This document shows positions 6,528 to 63,504 of a stretch of DNA of 64,000 nucleotides, piece after piece. The stretch is from Octopus sinensis (taxonomy: Eukaryota): the NCBI RefSeq assembly GCF_006345805.1, contig NC_042997.1, positions 107,322,001 to 107,386,000 of the forward strand, written 5' to 3'. The notes under the pieces are model-generated. The model was not told the DNA's origin. It was given only the letters and a program-made list of their open reading frames with translations, and did no database searches. The translations under genes were made by a program, and so were the position numbers. Every line of letters starts with the position of its first letter. Within the stretch, counting starts at the first letter, position 1.

Positions 6528-6840
6528 TCAAATAAAAAACATTCTTAACATCACTTTCTTCATATTCTTTTCTTCAACGTCAACAATGTATACACTAACT
6601 CTTTAAATATCACATTCTGCTGCTATATAATATATACAACCAGTTACAAAACAGATAATGAAAATATGTTCCCAGATTGAAAGCTACCAACTAGTTTAAT
6701 GCTTGTAACATAACAGACCCAACTGGAGTAGAACAGACACTCAAAATATAGTTGTCTTGTATAATATTTAATTTAAATGTATTATATGAAAATTCTAGGT
6801 TTTATAAATTTAATTTTATTTTGATGAATATAATCTTACT

Positions 6841-7085
6841 TCATCATCATCATCGTTTAACGTCTGCTTTCCATGCTGGCATGGGTGGACGATTTGACTG
6901 AAGGCTGGCGAACCAGATGGCTGCACCAGGCTCCAATCTTGATCTGGCAGAGTTTCTACAGCTGGATACCCTTCCTAATGCCAACCACTCAGAGTGTAGT
7001 GGGTGCTTTTTACGTGCCACCAGCACAGGGGCCAGTCTGGCAGTACTGGCAACGACCTTGCTCGAATCTTTTTACACATGCCACC
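6841..7085 (-). mobile_element. RTE LINE 3' UTR/tail fragment
   Basis: Reverse complement of the CCCATGCCAGCATGGAAAGCAGACGTTAAAC(GAT)n tail shared by many copies in the window. Confidence 0.85.
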
Positions 7086-7144
7086 TCAGCAAAGGATTGA
7101 GGTTATTGAAAATTAGTGTTAAAATCAGTATAATAAATATTAAC

Positions 7145-7705
7145 AGTGTAACCAGCCCACTTATGAGTTCCCCTCATTCATTGGACAATAAACTTTGCTT
7201 GTGAAGGCCTGTTGAGGCAAGTGGAATCAAAATCGCTGACGTGGCCGATGACATTACTGCCTGATTGGCACTCATACCAGTGGAACATTAAAAGCACCAT
7301 CCGAGCATGGTAATTGCCAGGGCCGCTGATTGGCTCCTGTGCCAGTGGCACATAAAAAGCACTATTTGAGCATGGTTGTTGCCAGCATTGCCTTAATGGC
7401 ACATGAAAAACAATATTTGAGCATGGTCATTGCCAGTGCCGCCGGACTGGCTCCTGTACAGGTAGCATGTAAAAAACACCTTTTGAGCATGATTGTTGTC
7501 AGAACTGCCTGACTAGCCCTCATGCTGGTGGCACGTAAAAGCACCCACTACACTCTTGGATTGGTTGGCATTAGGAAGGGCATCCAGCTGTAGAAACTTT
7601 GCCAAATCAGATTGAGCCTGGTGCAGCCATCTGGCTCACCAGTCCTCAGTCAAACTGCCCAACCCATGCCAGCATGGAAAGCGGACGTTAAATGACGACG
7701 ATGAA
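7145..7705 (+). mobile_element. RTE LINE 3' UTR with about five ~66-bp subrepeats
   Basis: Same 3' UTR that follows RTE ORF2 at 39110-39632 and 62940-63504. Confidence 0.85.
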
Positions 7706-7959
7706 GTAAATATTAATGAAATGGCTTCAGTTCTGCAGAGTTTTTTGAAAATCCATAGAATAATAAAATTTTGCAGAAATAGGATTTCAAAGGTGCAGAT
7801 TATAATTATATAACTGATATTCAGAAAATTTTGTTTTTTACTCATTAAGGAAAGAAGTCTATATCTTCTTAACCTTTCAGTAATTGGTTAATGATCATTG
7901 AACAGCATAAAAAAACCATGACAATATCCTAATTAACATGAGTCATCAACATGAAACTG

Positions 7960-32392: not shown

Positions 32393-32810
32393 TGTAACGT
32401 GAAAGGATCTATCATCGAAGCACTGGCAGGGTGTCGAGATCCTTTCTAGTCACATACAATAATTCTTGTAGAAAACAAACAGACGAAACTCAGGTTAAAG
32501 GTGAACAGACAACTTGGTTTATTGATTCATGGTTGTACGTTGTCTGATGGGGGAATAGACAGCCTCTGAGATACTGCTGGTGTTGGTCGTTGAGGTTGGT
32601 TGAAGTTGGTTGAAGTTGGTGTGTGGCTGTCAGAGCCAGGAAAACCGTGACCGATCGCAGTGCTGTCTTGAGCCGAAGAGAGAGATTTGAGGTTCGCGGG
32701 CTCGAGAGATGTTTTCCCGCACATGCGCATGGGGAAGACTTCCGGTGGCCACCCGGAAGTAGTCCCATTCTGCGCATGCGCGCCGAACCCTACACTGTAG
32801 CATCACTACA
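32393..32810 (-). repeat. 3' LTR (418 bp)
   Basis: Matches 37023-37438 except for two 1-bp homopolymer indels seen by eye. Confidence 0.97.
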
Positions 32811-37022: not shown

Positions 37023-37438
37023 TGTAACGTGAAGGATCTATCATCGAAGCACTGGCAGGGTGTCGAGATCCTTCTAGTCACATACAATAATTCTTGTAGA
37101 AAACAAACAGACGAAACTCAGGTTAAAGGTGAACAGACAACTTGGTTTATTGATTCATGGTTGTACGTTGTCTGATGGGGGAATAGACAGCCTCTGAGAT
37201 ACTGCTGGTGTTGGTCGTTGAGGTTGGTTGAAGTTGGTTGAAGTTGGTGTGTGGCTGTCAGAGCCAGGAAAACCGTGACCGATCGCAGTGCTGTCTTGAG
37301 CCGAAGAGAGAGATTTGAGGTTCGCGGGCTCGAGAGATGTTTTCCCGCACATGCGCATGGGGAAGACTTCCGGTGGCCACCCGGAAGTAGTCCCATTCTG
37401 CGCATGCGCGCCGAACCCTACACTGTAGCATCACTACA
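37023..37438 (-). repeat. 5' LTR (416 bp)
   Basis: Direct repeat of 32393-32810, adjacent to the PBS. Confidence 0.97.
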
Positions 37439-37887: not shown

Positions 37888-38527
37888 TTCGGGACGGTCA
37901 TTTTTTATTTATTTTGCCAAATAAACATGTTTGTTCCTTCTCGAGCCACGCCTGGCTCATAGGGCCGGTTTCCTTGGTGTATAGGTTCCTCACCTGGACG
38001 GGACGCCGGTCCGTCGCAGGTGAGCTGCAAGATGCAGGAGGAAAGAGCGAGAGAAAGTTGTAGCGAAAGAGTCAGCAGAAATTCGCCATTTCCTCCCGAT
38101 CATGCTGCCATCTTGCTCATAAGCACGCACATCGCCCGGTCTGAGATTCGAACCCGCGATCCCTCGACCGCGAGTCCGCTGCTCTAACCACTAAGCCATG
38201 TGCCTCCACTGCCAAATAAAAACTATATATTCGTTCTTCACTTTTATTACTGTTCTTATTCTAATTCGTGTCCCTTGTCCGGAAATCTTTCGTCACACAT
38301 CTGTGACCTCCTCAGCGACATTTTCTGTTTTCGTATGTGCTCTTCGTACGAAGAACAGAATGGAATAAGTAGACGGAAAGTGTCGCTGAGGGTGTTACAG
38401 GTGTGTGACGAAAGATTTCCGGACACGGGACATGAGTTAATATAGGAACAGTAATTAACGAGTGAAGAACGAATATATAGTGCATGTGTGTATTTGGCGG
38501 AAAAAGAAAATGACCGTCCCGAAATAG
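37885..38527. mobile_element. Palindromic MITE interrupted by a SINE
   Basis: TIR ATTTCGGGACGGTCATTTT; internal arms 38224-38320 and 38377-38480 are imperfect reverse complements. Confidence 0.8.
37926..38209 (-). mobile_element. tRNA-derived SINE with 11-bp TSD
   Basis: Minus-strand head TGGCTTAGTGGTTAGAGC...GGTTCGAATC; TSD TGCCAAATAAA at 37915 and 38210. Confidence 0.85.
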
Positions 38528-39631
38528 AAGTCCTAATAAGTAGGAGGGCAGGCAAACCACAAATCCCTTCAGGTAAATGGCCCTGCTCGATCTGTAGAAA
38601 GGGCGTAGGTAGAAACTCTATAAGATGTACCCAGTGTAAGCTATGGACACATAAGAGGTGCAGCAATATCAAAGGAAGGCTAACTAGGAAGATAGTTTTT
38701 GTAAGTAGCAGATGCTCAAGAGCAATAAACACTGAAACTGTGCAGAGAACAACTTCCGCCACATTCCAGGGAATGAAGCCAGCATGATTCAGTGGATGTG
38801 TAATGCCAGTGTGCATACTCGACAGAGTGGAAGTACCTTGAGAGAAAAGTTGGGCCTAAGAAGCATCAAATGTGGTGAGCAAGAGAGATGACTGCGCTGG
38901 TATGGTCGTGTGGCAAGAATGGATGAGGATAGCTGTGTGAAAAAGTACCACACCCTAGCGATTGAGGGAACCTGTGGAAGAGGTAGACCCAGGAAGACCT
39001 GGGATGAAGTGGTGAAGTACGACCTTCGAACTTTAGGCCTCACCAAGGAAATGACTAGTGACCGAGACTTTTGGAAATATGCTGTGCTTGAGAAGACCCG
39101 GCAAGCCAAATGAGACCATAACCTCGTGGCCTATGCCAGAAGCGTAACCAGCCCACTTATGCGTACCTTTTCCTTCTTTGGACACTAAACTCTGCTTGCG
39201 AAGACCTATTGAGGCAAGTGAAATCAAAATCAAACTGAATGACTGGCATCCGTGCTAGCGAGGTGCAAAGAGCACCATACAAGTGTGATCGTTGACAGAG
39301 CGGCTAACCAGCTTCCGTGTCAGTGGCACATATGGGTACCATTCGAGCATGATCGTTACCAGCATCGCCTTACTGGCACCTGTGCTGGTGGCATATGTAA
39401 AAAGATTCAAGCAAGGTCGCTGCCAGTACCGCCTGACTGGCCCCCGTGCTGGTGGTACGTAAAAAGCACCCACTACACTCTTGGAGTGGTTGGCTTTAGG
39501 AAGGGAATCCAGCTGTAGAAACTCTGCCAGATCAAGATTGGAGCCTGGTGGAGCCATCTGGTTCGCCAACCCTCAGTCAAAATCGTCCAACCCATGCTAG
39601 CATGGAAAGCGGACGTTAAACGATGATGATG

Positions 39632-39632
<1 letters not shown>
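38528..39632 (+). mobile_element. RTE LINE 3' portion (Cys-rich insert, C-terminus, 3' UTR, (GAT)n)
   Basis: WPCSICRKGVGRNSIRCTQCKLWTHKRC; GRGRPRKTWDEVV; followed by (TA)n at 39639-39695. Confidence 0.9.
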
Positions 39633-39700
<68 letters not shown>

Positions 39701-49700: not shown

Positions 49701-50359
49701 TTTTTCTTTCTTTTCTCTTTTTTCTCATTCTCTTGCTTTGTTTTTTCTTTATCTTTCTTTTTGTATTTTATAGTTGATAGCTTCTGTTACCTAGGTGACC
49801 AAGTCAGTAGCAGGGGAGAATGCTCTGAGAGCATAGCTGCTAGAATCAAAATATCCTGGACAAAGTTCAGGGAGCTCCTACCTCTGCTGGTAACAAAGGG
49901 CCTCTTGTTCAGAGTGAATGGTAGACTGTATGATACATGTGTGCGAACAACCATGCTACACGGCAGTGAAACATGGGCTGTGGTTGCTGAGGACATGTGT
50001 AGGCTTGTCAGTCCTCAGTCAAACCATCCAACCCATGCCAGCATGAAAAGCAGATGTTACATGATAAAGATAGTGATGATGATGCTGTATCATATACTAT
50101 GTAATAAAATTTTACCAATTGCAATAAACAGCTTTCATACTCTGAAAAAAAGGAATAATGTTATATTCTAATTAGATAATTAATAATCAAAACAAAATAT
50201 ATATTGAATAATTTTATGTAATTGAAGGCATACAATATATCTCTTTAACTGCCACTGGTTAAGGGGTACTATGACTTATACAATGCTGTTCTATATTTTT
50301 GAGATTAGGAATTCTGTACATTATTTACATTGGACAGATAAGTGTCCCTATCTTTGTTT

Positions 50360-50407
50360 TACCACAACGTTTTGGCTGATTTACTCTCCAGCCTTCATCA
50401 GGTGGTA
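50360..50407 (-). ncRNA. Minimal type-I hammerhead ribozyme motif (G12A, probably inactive)
   Basis: TACCAC-CTGATGA-A-GGCTG-loop-CAGCC-AAAAC-GTT-GTGGTA: stems I and II perfect, palindromic ACGT stem III. Confidence 0.65.
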
Positions 50408-50600
50408 GAATATGGCAAATGGTATTAAGGAAAGATACAAAAATATTAGGTTTATAAGCCCTGAAATTCATTTAGTGTTATGGTTAAGAGCATGGGCTAC
50501 TAACCACAAGATTGTGTGTTCAATTCCAGGCAGTGCCTTGAATAAGTAATAATAACATCATCAAAAAAATACCCAGGGTTGGGTTCAAAATCCTAGCAGG

Positions 50601-50646
50601 ACGCCTGATGAAGGCTGGAGAGTAAATCAGCCAAAATGTTGTGGTA
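50601..50646 (+). ncRNA. Second, more degenerate hammerhead motif
   Basis: CTGATGA at 50605-50611, stem II GGCTG/CAGCC, AAAAT in place of GAAAC, then GTT-GTGG. Confidence 0.55.
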
Positions 50647-51179
50647 ATAACAAACAAGATGAGGACTCATATCCGTCCGATGTGAATAATGTAATGACTT
50701 ATACAAGTTGTAACACCGTTACTCTGTAAATACATCGGAGTTTATTTCTGGTAGGATTTGGCACTTAAAGTTGGTTGTTGATCTGTTTGGTGTAGTGGAG
50801 ATGTGTTGTGGCAACTATATACTTTTATACACAATATTAGAATGTAGACAATAGTTCCTCAAGGGACTATTGATTATTTTTTGAAGTTGTATGTCTTCTT
50901 ATCTCAAGTTATGTGCCGTTGCACTATTTGTTGCTTCTGCATATTATTAGTCCTATCATTAATGCTATCAATACCACCACCACCATCATTATTAATATTG
51001 TTGTTATTAAAGCTGCTGTAGAAGCTGTCAGTATTATAGTTGTGATAGTGATGATTGTTGCTTGCTATATTATCCATATTATTCAGGGTGAGTGTAGCAA
51101 TATCAGTAGGGGTCAGTTGACCATGTTTGCTATTGTAGCCCCAATAAATAACATTACTGTGGTAGCTGACAGTTACTTC

Positions 51180-54100
51180 AGACTATCATCATCTGTTGTC
51201 CATGCTGGTATGGCATGGCTTGGATGCTTTGACCAGAGCTGGAAAGCTGCACCAGGTTCCAGTCTGATCTGGCATGGATTTTACAGCTGGATGCCCTTCC
51301 TAATGCCAACCACTTTACAAAGTGCGCTGGATGCTTTTATGTGGCACTGGCACATAGGACTCTTGCAGGCCAATCCTCTTCACTGGGCACCAGGTGGGGC
51401 AGGGGCAGCCTCAACATTTCTCCTGTGTTGTATGAATCTTCTTAAGTACAGTCAGGTGCCAAGCATCTTGCTCCTTAAGGTTCAGCATCTGAGGTCATCT
51501 TTCAATACTTTGTCCCATGTCTTCCTGAGTCTCCCACTTTCACGTGTTCCATCTAATTTCAGAGATCAGCACTTCTGTATGGAGCTGTTGGCATCCATCT
51601 GCATCACATGACCAAGCCGGTGCCATCATCTCTCTTGCACATTGCATCTAATTCCTCTTATGCCTAACTTCTCTCTCAATACACTTTCACTCTGTTGACC
51701 ATGTACACTTACATTACTCATTCAGCTGAACATGCTAACTACATTCCACTCCTACCTTTGCATGTCCACTGCATTCAGGGCCCGTGTCCCATTACCATGT
51801 AGAATTGTTGTCTGTGTATATGCATCATATAATCTTCCTTTCATTGGAGAGAGAAACCACTAAAGGTAACAGCTCTCTGAATTTCCTCCATCCTATTCTT
51901 ATTTTAACTATCACACTCTCCATGCATCCTCCCCCAACTACTAATTTGGTCCCCTGGATCACAGAAATTATCTACAACCTCTAATGAGCCACCAGGGCAT
52001 TTGAGGAATCATGAGCGACAGAGCATGTCTTGAGAGAAAAACAGGGCATAAGAGGCATCAGATGTGGTGTGCAAGAAAGATGAATGTGCTGGTATGGTCA
52101 TGTAATGCGTACGGATGAGGACAGCTGTGTAAAGAAGTGCCGATCTGTAACTGTGGATGGAACCTGTCGAAGAGGTAGACCCAGGAAAACATGAGATGAG
52201 GCGGTGAAGGATGATCTTTGAATGTTGGGCCTCACAGAGGTGATGACTAGTGACTGAGACCTTTAGTGAGATGCCATACTTGAGAAGAGTCCTCAAGCAG
52301 AGTGAAGTCGTAGTGATGGCCATTGCTGGTGTCATGTAAACGGCATCCATGAAATTGTAATCGTGGCCATTGCCGGCCGCATGATCTTCAAATGTTGGAC
52401 CTCATGGAGGTGAAGGACAAAGTGGTGAAATATGATCTTCAAATACTGGGCCTCATGGAGGCAGTGACAAGTGACTGAGACCTTAGCAATATGACTCATG
52501 AAGTCAAGTGAGTCATGGCCATTACCAGTGGGACATAAAAAGCACCCATTACACTCTCAGAGTGGTTACTGTTAGAAAGGGCATCCAGCCGTAGAAATCA
52601 TGCCAAATCAAACTGGAACCTGTTGCAGCTCTTCAGCTTACCAGTTCCAGTCCAAGTGTCTAACCCATACTGGCATAAAAAGCGGACGTTAAGTGATGAT
52701 GATGATGATGATGAATTTCCTGAGTCTCTAGAGTTTTTATGGATCCTGTGCATCTTCCACATGCAAACATTAATGTGTACACCACCTGGAGTTCCTGCCT
52801 ACACCTTTCCTACAAATTGAACAAGGCTACCTACCTGAAGGGGTAGGGTCCTGCCTGTTTTCTTGCTTTCTAAGACCTTGGTCTTTACTAAATTAACCTT
52901 AAGCCCTTTGATTCTAGGTTTAGCTTCCACACCTGGAATTTTTCTTCTAACTCTTGATATGGAAACTGCAATGATGGGGAGATGGTCACCATACAGTAGT
53001 TCCCACGGGCTGCCAGTCTTCAGTTCCTCTGCTATTATCTGGAGGACAATGATGAAGAGGAGATCAACTAGCTGAGTACATCTCTTGCAGTTGCCAGACT
53101 ATGAAATAGCGTCAGTCATGCTTCTTCCCTGGACGAAGCCAAACTGCATTTTGTCTTGCCTAATTCGGCTCCTAATTAATTGGGCTATAATTGTCTCTGT
53201 AATTTTCATCACCTGAGTTTGATGTCTCTATAATTGCTTCTACCTAAAGCATCACCCTTACCCTTGTAGCAGCTAACAATAATGCTGCTATGCAAGTCAC
53301 TGGGGGGGGGGGGGGTATGCCTGCCTCAATAACCTAATTAATTATGCAGGTGACTAGCCTGTATCCTACCTTACTGGATATTTTGAGCATCTCAGCTGTG
53401 ATTCCGGGTGGACCAGGGGCTTTCTTGGTTTTCATGTCTTTAAATTGCCTTATCTACCATACTGCTGTCCACTAGGATAGCTGGTCCCTCTGTTGGGTTC
53501 ACATGTGGGAGACTTCCTTTTATCCCATTCATGTGTCGGTGGCACATAAAAAACACCATCCGAGCGTGGCCGTCTGCCAGCCTCGTCTGGCACCTGTGTT
53601 GGTGGCAGATAAAATCACCCACTACACTCTCGGAGTGGTTGGCGTTAGGAAGGGCATCCAGCTGTAGAAACACTGCCAGATCTGACTGGCCTGGTGCAGC
53701 CTTCGGGCTTGCCAGACCCCAGTTGAACCGTCCAACCCATGCTAGCATGGAAAGCGGACGTTAAACGATGATGATGATGATGATGATTCTCTACAATCAA
53801 CAGTCTTGCATAGTAACATTTCCATGCCTCTTTCTTGTCCACATCCCTAAGTGCAAACATACCATTATCCATCCGCACACACTTCTCTCTCCCACAATAT
53901 CTCAATTCTCACTGACACACTGTAGGACTTTGGCAAACCTCTTCTTTTCTGCTTCTATCCTAGCTAGATAAACCTGATGTCTAGCTTCTCTTTTAGCGTT
54001 TGGATATGATTCTTTGCTAACCCCCCCTCTCCATTCTTTCCGGACCTATCTATTCTCTTTTATGGACTGGTCTTATAATAATAATAATAATTATTATTAT

Positions 54101-54660
54101 TATGGATACCTACATTATTATTATTATTATTATTGCCATTAATGATATACTGTTGGATGTGTACAATTGCTATTATTACTATTATGCTTGCTATTGTCAC
54201 TAATAGTAGTATGACCAACAGTATTGGTGCTATTAATGTTATTAGTTTACATTCTTTATGTTGTTTTCATTTTTATCACTTTTAAGGTTTTGTTCCTATA
54301 AATATTCAGCAACCAATTGTGGTCGTTGCCAGCCTATCCTGGCACCTGCGCTGGTGGCACCTAAAAAGCACCATCCGTACGTGGTTGATGCCAGTGCTGC
54401 CTTGACTGGCTTCCGTGCTGGTGGCACATAAAAAGTACCAACCGATCGTGGCCGTTGCCAGCGTGCCATGGCACCTGTGCCGGTGGCATGTAAAATGCAC
54501 CCACTACACTCACGGAGTGGTTGGCATTAGGAAGGGCATCCAGCTGTAGAAACACTGCCAGATCTGACTGGAGCCTGGTGCAGCCTCCTGGCTTCCCAGA
54601 CCCTGGTTGAACCGTCCAACCCATGCCAGAATGGAAAACAAACGTTAAACGATGATGATA
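51180..54660. mobile_element. Cluster of decayed RTE LINE fragments in both orientations (about 51180-52000 -, 52010-52715 +, 52740-54070 - with nested 53530-53786 +, 54310-54660 +)
   Basis: Each matches RT, C-terminal or 3' UTR/(GAT)n segments of the family at 59590-63504. Confidence 0.85.
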
Positions 54661-55139
54661 ACAAGTAATTTTTTTTACCGCATTTGAAGCAATTGGATTT
54701 ATAGTTGACTGGGGGTAATGTTGCTAGACAAGTGAGAAATAGGAACAGACCCATGCACTTCAGTATCTGAAGTTTCAATATATGAACATGTAGTCATGCT
54801 GTCAGCACTAGGTTTTTTACACAATAATATAGTAACTGGATGCGAGTATTGTTTTATTGTGATAAAATAGCCCTCAGAGGAAATTGCTTTCCATTATTAA
54901 TTTGACTCTATCAAGAGACATCTTGTTCTACTTCAGCAAATTAGATGTGAAAAAAGCGAATTAAAGAGTGAAATTAAAATATTATGAGGAATAATTAGTC
55001 TGTCATTATGTATCTTTAGATAATGATGAAGCCATTGGTTATAAAGATTTAGATCAAATGTAACTATGAATTAATCCCTATTAGATTTGAAGGAAGAGAT
55101 TACGTATTGATTTCTATAATCTATAAGTCCCATCAAGAT

Positions 55140-59589: not shown

Positions 59590-62432
59590 AATACAAAGGG
59601 AGCACTGATGGGGTTGGGGGCATGGGGATACTTCTTGTGGAGAAATGGGTTGATAAGGTAATCAAGATAGTCAGAGTATGCGACAGAATACTTAAGATTA
59701 GATTAGTGCTTAATCATGGGTTAGCAACCATTATCTCAGCCAGGGCTACCTGATGGACAGAAAGACTGATTTTATGACACCCTCTTGCAGACTACCTCGC
59801 TGATGAATGACAGGGACCTTCTCTTTGTGGCTGGTGACTTCAATGGACATGTTGGACGACATGCAGGGGGCTTCCATGGCGTACATGGAGGCTATGGCTA
59901 TGGTTCCTGCAACGAGGAAGGAACCAGGCTGTTGGAGTTCTGCAAATGATCTTATGGTTTGCAATATTAACTTCAGGAAACCTGCCAGTCACTTAGTCAC
60001 CTACCAATCAGGCTGACATACTTGCCAAATTGACTACATCCTTGCCAGAAAAAGGGAAAGATGGCTGCTTATAAATGCCCAAACCTTCCCAGGCAAAGAA
60101 TGTACCCCACAACATAGACGTATTACTCGAAGTCTTTGATGAAATAGAAGGGGATATAGCTTCACACAATATAGAAGACAAATGGAGGTTTCTATGAGAC
60201 AACATGTTGAAGGCCACTGACCAGATCTGTGGATGGTGCAAAGTCCCCTCTCGACCCAAAATAACGTGGTGGTGGAACAATGTTGTTGACAGCACCATTA
60301 GAGAAAAGAAACAGGCTTGGAAGGAATGGAAGAACGGTGGTAGCAGGGAATTGTAACAGACTGCCTGAAGGGAAGATAGGAGACAGGTTATTTAGCCAGA
60401 GAGGAAGCACATAAGAAAAAATTTGCTAATCTTCTGCGCTGTGAAGACCAAAGATTTGAGGTATTTCGTGTTGCAAGACAGTGTGTGAGAGAGAATTGTG
60501 ACATTGTAGGAGAGAAATGTGTCTGCATGGATGATGGCTCTCTTGCACTAAACGAGGCTGCAAAGACAGAGGTTTGGAGATGCCAATATGAAAGGTTGCT
60601 CAATAAAGAGAATGAATGGGAGAAAGAGAGTCTGCTGAATGTCGACCCAACAGAGGGACCAGTTATCCGAATTGACAGTACCTTGGTAGATAAAGCAATT
60701 AAGAGTATGAAGACAGGGAAAGCCCCTGGCCAATCAGGAATCACTGCAGAGATGCTCAAAATATCGGGCAATGTTGGCTATAGTCTAGTCAACCAGGTGA
60801 TACATGAAGGGGTCATACCCAATGTCTGGTGTAGCAGCACCATAGGCAACTGCTACAAAGGTAAGGGTGACGCTTTAGATAGAAATAATTACAGAGGTAT
60901 CAAGTTGTTGGATGAGGTAATGAAGGTCATGGAGAGGATCATAGCTCAGCTAATTAGGGAGAGAGTTAGTTTAGATGAGATACAGTTTAGGTTCGTGCCA
61001 GGGAAAAGCACCACCAATACTATATTTCTGGTAAGGCAGTTTCAGGAGAAATACCTAGCCAAAGATAAACCTCTGTACCTGGCTTTCGTTGACATAGAGA
61101 AAACCTTTGACAGGGTCCCCCGATTCCTTATCTGGTGGTCAATGAGGAAACTAGGGATAGATGAGTGGTTAGTGTGAGCCATGTACAGGGATGCTGTTAG
61201 TAAGGTGAGGGTTGGCAACGAGTACGCTGAAGAATTCCGGGTAGAAGTAGGGATCTACCAGGGTTCAATCCTCAGCCCCCTCCTATTTATAATAGTACTC
61301 CAGGCAATAACAGAGGAATTCAAGACAGGATGCCCCTGGGAGCTTCTCTATGCTGATGACCTTGCTCTAATTGCTTAGTCACTATCAGAACTCAAGGAGA
61401 AGTTTCAGGTGTGGAAACAAGGATTAGAATCGAAGGGCCTTAGAGTCAACCTAGCTAAAACCAAAGTCCTAATAAGTAAGAAGGCAGACAAACCACAAAT
61501 CCCTTCAGGTAGATGGCCCTGTTCGATCTTTTGATAAGGTGTTGGTAGAAACTCTATAAAATATACCCAGTTTAAGCTATGGACACATAAGAGATGCAGC
61601 AATATCAGAGGAAGGCTATCTGGGAAGATAGTTTTGTATGTGGCAGATGCTCAGGAGCAATAAACGCTGAAAATGTGCAGAGAACAACTATGCCACATTC
61701 CTGGGAGAAAAACTAGAAGTAGTTGATAGCTTCCATTACCTTGGTGACCAAGTTGGTAGCAGGGGTGGGTGCTCTGAAAGTGTAACTGTTAGAATAAGAA
61801 TTGCTTGGGCAAAGTTCAGAGAGCTGCTACCTCTGCTGGTGACAAAGGGCATCTCGCTCAGAGTAAAAAGTAGACTGTATGACGCATGTGTACGAACATC
61901 CATGCTCCATACTTGACAGTGTAAGTACCTTGAGAGGAAAGTTGAACCTAAGAAGCATCAGATGTGTGCAAGAGTGACAACTGCGTTGGTATGGTCATGC
62001 AGCAAGAATGGATGAGGATAGCTGTGTGAAAAAGTGTCACACCCTAACAGTTGAGGGAACCTGTAGACGAGGTAGACTCAGCAGGCAGAACAAGCGTGAT
62101 TGTTACCAGCGTTGCCTTACTGGCAATTGTGTCAGTGGCATGTGAAAGACAACATTCGAGCAAAGTTGTTGCCAGTGCCGCTGGACTGGCTCCTGTGCAG
62201 GTGGCATGTAAAAACACCTTTTGAGCGTGGCTGTTGCCAATACTGCCTGACACGCCCTCGTGCCGGTGGCATGTATAAAGCATGTGGTTGGCATTAGGAA
62301 GGGCATCCAGCTGTAGAAACTCTGCCAGATCAGATAGGAGCATGGTGCAGGCATCTGGCTCACCAGTCCTCAGTCAAACTGTCCAGCCCATGCCAGCATG
62401 GAAAGCAGACGTTAAACAATGATGATGATGAT
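59590..62432 (+). mobile_element. Long decayed RTE LINE (endonuclease, RT with PHD-like insert, 3' UTR, (GAT)n)
   Basis: VAGDFNGHVG, QIDYIL, 230-aa RT ORF 60485-61177, QGSILSPLLF, LLYADD; stops and deletions. Confidence 0.93.
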
Positions 62433-62435
62433 AGG

Positions 62436-63504
62436 AGAATAAGAATAGCCTGGACAAAATTTAGAGAGCTCTTACTTTTGCTTGTGACAAAGGGCCTCTC
62501 GCTCAGAGTAAAAGGTAGACTGTATGATGCATGTGTATGAACAGCCATGCTACATGGCAATGAAACATCAGCCTTGACTGCTGTGGACATGCGTAAGCTC
62601 GCAAGGAATGAAGCCAGTATGCTCTGATGAATGTGTAATGCCAGTGTGCATACTCGACAGAATGTTAGTGCCTTGAGAGAAAAGTTGGACCTAAGAAGCA
62701 TCAGATACGGTGTGCAAGAGAGACGACTGTGCTGGTATGGTCATGTGACGAGAATGGATGAGAATAGCTGTGAGAAAAAGTGCCACACCCTAGTGGTTGA
62801 GGGAACCTGTGGAAGAGGAAGACCTGGGATGAAGTGGTGAAGCATGACCTTTGAACATTAGGTCTCACCGAGGCAATGACTAGTGACTGAGACCTTTGGA
62901 AATATGCTGTGCGTGAGATGACCTGGCAAGCTAAGTGAGTTCATAACCTCGTGGCCTATGCCAGGAGTGTAACCAGCCCACTTATGCGTACCTTTCCTTC
63001 ATTGGACACTAAATTCTGCTTGCAAAGACCTGTTGAGGCAAGTGAAGTCGAAATCAAATTCGATGACTGGTATCCATGCTAGTGGAGCACTAAGAAAACC
63101 ATTCGAGCATGACTGTTGCCAGAGCAACAAACTGGCTTCCGTGCCGGTGGCACGTAAAAAGCACCATTTGAGCATGATCGTTACCTGCACTTGTGCAGGT
63201 GGCACGTGAAAAAACATTCGAGCGAGGTCGTTGCCAGTGCCACTGGACTGGCTCCTGTGCAGGTGGCACATAAAAAGCACCATTTGAGCGTGGTTGTGGC
63301 CAGTACTGCCTGACTGGCCCTCGTGCCAGTGGCACGTAAAAGCACCCACTACACTTTTGGAGTGGTTGGTGTTAGGAAGGGCATCCAGCTGTAGAAACTT
63401 TGCCAGATCAGATTGGGGCCAGGTGCAGCCATCTGGTTTGCCAGACCTCAGTCAAATCGTCCAACCCATGCTAGCATGGAAAGCAGAAGTTAAATGATGA
63501 TGAT
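62436..63504 (+). mobile_element. Second RTE 3' portion in tandem
   Basis: Restarts at RIRIAWTKFRELL, full 3' UTR with subrepeats, (GAT)n. Confidence 0.9.

Follow-up and report, generated by a model that had tools for sequence, protein, structure and literature searches.

Related elements

Statements on the papers cited here by PMC or bioRxiv number apply to the portions of their text that were available. Penelope-like elements (PLEs) of the Penelope/Poseidon type, among them PAc of Anolis and Penelope of D. virilis, encode reverse transcriptase (RT) together with a GIY-YIG endonuclease at the C terminus in a single ORF. Their copies are built with partial-tandem pseudo-LTRs, an inverted 5'-truncated arm and a 30-40 nt tail on one end; a hammerhead overlaps the ORF start and the 3' ends fall into two classes (PMC8557442, PMC11167929). 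Helix III of the PLE hammerheads is palindromic, and an additional base follows A9 (PMC4209133). In vitro, reverse transcription of the Poseidon element PAc starts at two sites inside the ORF, and its hammerhead cleavage requires protein and is dispensable for insertion (PMC11167929). The internal promoter of D. virilis Penelope is LINE-like and includes a DPE; the element also has an intron (PMC2377424). The hammerheads, the inverted pseudo-LTRs and the non-autonomous repeats derived from PLEs are therefore known features (PMC4209133, PMC8557442, PMC7761336, bioRxiv 10.64898/2026.07.22.740005).

Three further kinds of element come close in part. In the schistosome Sm-alpha and Sj-alpha repeats, a tRNA-related, apparently Pol III-transcribed unit is followed by a hammerhead; these repeats are non-coding, and no autonomous partner is named in the available text (PMC6765202, PMC2770079). 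Helenus, Cassandra and Ajax (TRIMp3) carry a small-RNA-derived Pol III promoter in the terminal repeat, tRNA-like in Helenus, and are non-autonomous LTR elements of up to 1.3 kb whose autonomous partners, according to the author, must use Pol II (PMC10886601). Animal non-LTR retrozymes are short hammerhead-bearing repeats related to PLE pseudo-LTRs (bioRxiv 10.64898/2026.07.22.740005; PMC7761336); they form tandem arrays, and the word tRNA is absent from the available text of the preprint.

The window analyzed here is a 64,000-nt stretch of the Octopus sinensis genome (contig NC_042997.1, positions 107,322,001 to 107,386,000). It contains an insertion that belongs to a PLE with the ORF, pseudo-LTR, tail, hammerhead and 3'-end features listed above for Penelope/Poseidon PLEs. 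Unlike in those elements, the promoter position is filled by a tRNA-derived A/B-box segment, the head, and the in-frame ATG lies 34 nt upstream of the hammerhead core rather than within stem II. The order of tRNA-related segment and hammerhead recalls Sm-alpha, and the position in a terminal repeat recalls Helenus and its kin; unlike in Sm-alpha, the octopus module is the terminal repeat of a coding element. Unlike the tandem retrozymes, the octopus short copies carry a minimal hammerhead and lie scattered or in inverted pairs. The initial annotation had inferred a family that bridges SINEs and retrozymes, a place already taken by Sm-alpha (PMC6765202, PMC2770079). A tRNA head joined to a hammerhead is thus known, and no report of one in the pseudo-LTR of an autonomous PLE was found in the literature consulted, although repeat databases and supplements may hold the family. 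In their available text, the octopus (PMC13282606) and squid (PMC6962438) annotations give many Penelope elements and unclassified SINE families without detail on a tRNA head.

Structure of the insertion

The insertion is bounded by exact 13-bp direct repeats, as first annotated (Table 1); one of 20,000 random window pairs gave such a match by chance. The inverted copy described as a tail of ~90 bp is real (50317-50402 versus 50604-50693, 87% over 90 nt), but the true arm is 119 nt long because it includes a tail extension. The two ends of the insertion represent one 3'-end class each, and the tail is on one side only, which is the arrangement drawn for PLEs in PMC8557442.

Table 1. Features of the insertion at window positions 50271-50706
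Feature	Position	Strand	Remarks
Left target-site duplication, 13 bp	50271..50283	+	Exact repeat
Inverted 5'-truncated pseudo-LTR arm	50284..50402	-	By alignment; hammerhead (G12A at 50373), ORF N-terminal codons, ~33-nt tail extension (50284-50316)
Final 17 codons and TAA stop of PLE GIY-YIG endonuclease ORF	50404..50457	+	Matches locus L027 and the family ORF end
Post-stop spacer	50458..50468	+	A 21-nt deletion here took the near-palindrome and the first head bases
tRNA-derived head	50469..50538	+	Decayed A box 50473-50483, intact B box 50518-50526
(AAT)n linker	50539..50571	+	Family ATG just 3' of the linker is deleted in this copy
Minimal type-I hammerhead, predicted	50599..50646	+	Inside the ORF in the family
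Hammerhead parts		+	Core 50605-50611; stem II 50613-50617/50628-50632; G12A 50633; predicted cut after 50640
ORF N-terminal coding stretch	50647..50693	+	Its end falls in the shorter of the family's two 3'-end classes (ATG+~123)
Right target-site duplication, 13 bp	50694..50706	+	Exact repeat

The forward arm is truncated at its 5' side within the end of the endonuclease ORF. Since endonuclease codons and their stop, unnoticed in the initial annotation, lie between the inverted arm and the head, the insertion is a 5'-truncated PLE and not a SINE. A SINE would start at its head with no coding sequence of the partner upstream; the window copy begins in the endonuclease ORF, and only short copies elsewhere have that form. 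Nor does it resemble a non-LTR retrozyme, a tandem of non-coding hammerhead repeats, being a head-to-head pair with coding sequence. The A box/B box head of the initial annotation is indeed tRNA-like and keeps its B box, but in this copy the A box has two mismatches and the first bases are deleted. The head has lost its 5' edge and its A-box consensus, and the ATG and the catalytic G12 are gone too, so the copy is dead, as had been supposed. What remains is almost certainly an ordinary dead fragment of a PLE, carrying an inverted pseudo-LTR and flanked by the 13-bp target duplication.

The autonomous parent element

A genome of 2.72 Gb in 13,516 contigs was searched with the endonuclease piece, which gave 2,576 first-look candidates. 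Of 30 loci anchored in the endonuclease, 26 continue straight into the head and the other four into later parts of the repeat; in a second set, found with a foreign homologue, the count was again 26 of 30. A column majority over 189 fragments yields a 2,652-nt (2.65 kb) unit with a single RT and GIY-YIG frame of 835 codons. The unit runs from the endonuclease stop through a 30-nt spacer, the head, the (AAT)n linker and the ATG to the in-frame hammerhead and then the RT and GIY-YIG ORF. The Pfam RVT_1 model scored above its cut-off on a natural fragment of a long copy. The C-terminal domain scored 0.97 in comparison with GIY-YIG look-alikes, and all ten top family matches agree; a Pfam search of the endonuclease fragment did not call GIY-YIG, and a search of solved structures with it gave no match.

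Loci anchored in the ORF N-terminus supply the other side of the unit. The natural tandem junction of stop, head, linker, ATG and ORF is present in 4/30, and the head runs into the ORF in 6/30; copies L251 and L256 start at the head and continue into the ORF. The head is thus the 5' untranslated part of an autonomous element, and the hammerhead lies inside its coding frame. Length variants in the hammerhead-bearing N-terminus (L239, L242 and L256 near 1330-1500, oriented), namely a 6-nt indel between subfamilies and a 9-nt repeat, keep the reading frame, which supports the upstream ATG.

The single ORF with RT followed by C-terminal GIY-YIG, the partial-tandem pseudo-LTR, the inverted truncated 5' copy and the tail on one end are those of EN+ PLEs, and the ORF frame reads as Penelope/Poseidon by the clade definition of PMC8557442. 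Judged from these data, the parent is an autonomous Penelope/Poseidon-type retroelement that is abundant in the genome. The link to Penelope proposed at the outset was well founded, and the autonomous PLE that was expected to share the tail is this 2.65-kb unit, which carries head and hammerhead as well. The proposed non-coding SINE family apart from the PLE does not hold, given the endonuclease sequence in the window copy and the place of the head in the autonomous element. When sister families lacking the head were sought, all of the loci returned (30/30) belonged to the studied family. Among the homologues P0001-P0035, the relatives P0001-P0007 are 62-75% identical. The same insertion with its flanks recurs at several places (L235-L238; L423, L424, L427, L428), representing segmental duplication or redundant contigs.

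The tRNA-derived head

A profile of host tRNAs matches the window at 50487-50536 (E=0.0045 over the window) and, on the majority unit, the head only (E=7e-6). Compared with an incomplete sample of 33 distinct host tRNA sequences of nine anticodon types, taken from 46 loci, the majority head scores best against tRNA-Arg(TCT), above all 1000 dinucleotide shuffles; assignment to Arg-TCT is tentative, as Cys and Ala score close. It has a perfect A box at position 8 and a perfect B box at 53, and its 5' acceptor bases do not pair with its 3' end. ARAGORN found no genes in the window or in 60 family loci, and Rfam called no tRNA or hammerhead in the window and neither head nor hammerhead in the family. 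The tRNA profile did not match seven distant metagenome relatives or the majorities of two control PLEs.

A 13-mer from the head occurs 8,258 times in the genome, as compared to 17 for a control. Two subfamilies are distinguished by differences at five of the 73 positions in the head. Three of these lie inside the boxes (tRNA positions 9, 15 and 57), all on degenerate purine positions, and one of the three is at a CpG. By sequence comparison, then, a tRNA-derived segment is shown to occupy what would be the promoter position of an autonomous PLE.

The hammerhead

The core CTGATGA, the 5-bp stem II and the A at G12 (50373 and 50633) were confirmed in both arms, and the minimal type-I fold with palindromic stem III that was recognized initially agrees with PLE hammerheads (PMC4209133). 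In the family the core is intact, with 65 and 1551 exact genome matches for the two subfamily motifs. A minimal descriptor finds one predicted hammerhead in the family-majority unit and none in 1000 shuffles; an additional base follows A9, and helix III is palindromic, as in PLE hammerheads. Folded as a single strand, one natural copy formed stems I and II without reaching the catalytic fold; cofolding did not produce the helix-III dimer.

Stem I of the minus copy, initially described as a perfect 6-bp helix, is no family feature; it borrows bases from the place where the inversion meets endonuclease sequence. G12A, the sole change common to both window arms, had been read as a sign that both came from one template. 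Among 62 copies unselected on the core, the CpG context survives in 32 and A replaces G12 in 13, so CpG decay leaves the shared change saying little about a common template, and it was rejected as proof of one.

Copy ends and short copies

Copy 5' ends were mapped in 140 arms picked by an intact hammerhead alone (50 of the 65 and 90 of the 1,551 matches, a few rows being the same insertion). For the 59 arms that reach head position +20, the stop rate elsewhere predicts 5.3 ends between -20 and +20, whereas 43 were observed; the other 16 run on, two of them probably through alignment overrun. In a second sample, 60 of the 8,258 head matches with four rows from one duplicated locus, 45 stop at the edge, 12 beyond and three inside, with none between -18 and -61. 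About three quarters of head-reaching copies (43/59; 45/57 in the second sample) therefore end at the head 5' edge, with a sharp limit ~7 nt upstream of the head. If structure were the block, RT should halt 3' of the tRNA fold, which makes this edge most likely the 5' end of the RNA, ~14 nt before the A box.

The 3' ends fall at ATG+~123-129 and ATG+~151-160, two classes that parallel the two start sites of PAc (PMC11167929). Pieces reaching >100 nt into the ORF make up 15/73 and 38/188 in the two subfamilies, counted in a pooled, non-random set. The expectation that head and tail would be linked in other copies was borne out, with a hammerhead or tail within 800 nt of 48 of the 60 second-sample heads.

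Most head-bearing copies are short (45/60), and some have target duplications of their own: 5/17 show repeats of >=8 nt, two of them microsatellite-like, against a null of 4.8%. Such copies would suit an independent non-coding SINE lineage in which a tRNA head and a PLE tail are mobilized in trans. That lineage is nevertheless very improbable: the window copy contradicts it by its endonuclease sequence, the head, which in a separate lineage would be missing from the autonomous partner, is carried by it, no foreign tail was seen behind the head among the 60 sampled matches, and the occurrence of long and short forms in both subfamilies argues against a separate SINE. Of the traits of a SINE, a head with A and B boxes is present in the family majority, the window copy having the B box only.

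Absence of T runs

Along the 2,652 nt of the majority sense strand, T never occurs four or more times in succession. Synonymous shuffling of the ORF predicts 2.9 such runs (P=0.033), a third-base model 4.7 (P=0.002). A separate set of 30 copies likewise had none over 1,882 nt. Windows with five T in six nt number zero where 6.0 are expected; a control PLE has 25. In natural open frames the density is 0.69 T4 per kb in the family versus 3.56 and 5.06 in controls.

Three control retroelements were compared. The first (L265-L294, e.g. L060:2366-3097) is a young second PLE family whose copies are 97-99% identical; its frame spans >=781 codons, it has a cysteine-rich linker, and under the criteria of PMC8557442 it is Neptune-like. 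The other PLE control (L318-L347; L092:5700-6200, minus strand) is an older third family found beside a near-full copy of the studied element. The last (L183, L184, L438-L467) is a very young LINE, 99% identical and (AAT)n-flanked, which from its motifs we take to be Dong/R4-like. The two PLE families have 9 and 15 runs of four or more T, and the LINE has four against 6.1 expected, its last ~1.5 kb being T4-free; T-run poverty is therefore not unique to the studied element. Its majority also lacks runs of four G (base shuffle, P=0.03; codon shuffle, P=0.27). The depletion signal is real but moderate.

Transcription

The head is probably used as a Pol III promoter in some form, as its boxes, their position and the copy ends suggest, and such use would explain the thousands of SINE-like short copies. 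Among the listed records that contain the element, none is entered as RNA. Three raw RNA runs, picked by species label and from an organism not shown to be that of the window, have equal depth on both strands and so tell nothing of an own transcript; no pile of read starts was listed at the predicted hammerhead cut. Loose read ends at head -7 (404, 333 and 331 reads) mostly continue as an inverted head and thus mirror the structure of copies in the genome.

Alternatively, the head could be a captured tRNA piece without a Pol III role, the 5'-end peak marking either the place where Pol II starts or a hot spot for junctions. Consistent with this, a near-palindrome spans head -7..+5, many junctions fold back there and could be attracted by it, 27/43 peak copies have an inverted partner, many being head-to-head or with short fold-backs, the loose RNA ends continue as the inverted head, and PLE pseudo-LTRs are known to contain the start site (PMC2377424, PMC8557442). 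The alternative is unlikely, more so than the Pol II-mRNA alternative considered below, because the peak remains in copies without an inverted partner (edge stop versus run-on, 16 vs 8 and 17 vs 9), the boxes stay consensus in both subfamilies, and the T4 deficit would require a separate cause.

As for what the promoter makes, the somewhat favored reading is an autonomous PLE with a tRNA-derived Pol III promoter in its pseudo-LTR, the same RNA being internally primed into short copies. Its stronger form, in which the whole 2.65-kb coding RNA is made by Pol III, the ORF is purged of terminators and the SINE-like progeny come from that transcript, is tentative and less probable than its negation. 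Translation of an 835-codon ORF from an uncapped Pol III RNA is unexplained and counts against the reading in either form, as do the LINE-like promoter of D. virilis Penelope, the near-palindrome that could attract junctions, the CpG at one of the box substitutions, the lack of G4 runs, the T4-free stretch of the unrelated LINE, and a head whose acceptor ends do not pair and which neither Rfam nor ARAGORN calls. Translation would pose no problem if Pol III made short RNAs only and the full-length mRNA came from Pol II, by host read-through or a separate promoter; the element would then be an ordinary PLE with a built-in SINE-like by-product. The 5'-end peak and box conservation fit this equally well, and the unrelated LINE also has its 1.5 kb T4-free stretch. 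This division of labor is nonetheless unlikely, since T-run depletion spans the whole ORF, far from the head, as the 5-T-in-6 windows show, and L251 and L256 start at the head and enter the ORF.

Under the Pol III reading, the A/B-box segment directly upstream of the start codon would be the internal promoter of the element. The RNA would start ~14 nt before the A box and be read through the T4-free sense strand into the next pseudo-LTR. The PLE protein would nick AT-rich DNA, and reverse transcription would start in the first ~125 or ~155 nt of the ORF. If priming fell in the first pseudo-LTR of the RNA, SINE-like copies of ~280 nt would result, bounded by the 5' end of the RNA; if it fell in the downstream pseudo-LTR, longer copies into the endonuclease would arise, the window copy among them; and priming on both target strands would give the head-to-head inverted arm. 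The hammerhead, acting as a dimer, would cut multimeric RNA.

Implications and neighboring repeats

Because an autonomous retrotransposon has to be translated, the general view is that it depends on Pol II (or Pol I read-through), a Pol III promoter being the mark of its parasites. A tRNA promoter before the ATG and a terminator-free ORF would break this division, combining a LINE-class element with its SINE as a single unit, and would raise the question of how an uncapped, hammerhead-containing RNA is translated. It would also offer a simple route from PLE pseudo-LTRs to tRNA-plus-hammerhead repeats such as Sm-alpha. In annotation, the head-bearing arms, at least 8,258 in this genome, could easily be filed as SINEs or tRNA pseudogenes.

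Other repeats lie in the same window. The head of a different tRNA-derived repeat at 38136-38201 (minus strand) matches the host tRNA profile at E=4.8e-9 and is probably an ordinary SINE. Many dispersed copies of another abundant repeat, some as inverted pairs, are found at 6820-7720, 38767-39633, 51192-54668 and 62093-63504. A 418-bp direct repeat with 99.5% identity (32393-32810 and 37023-37438), its copies 4.6 kb apart, looks like a recent LTR pair.
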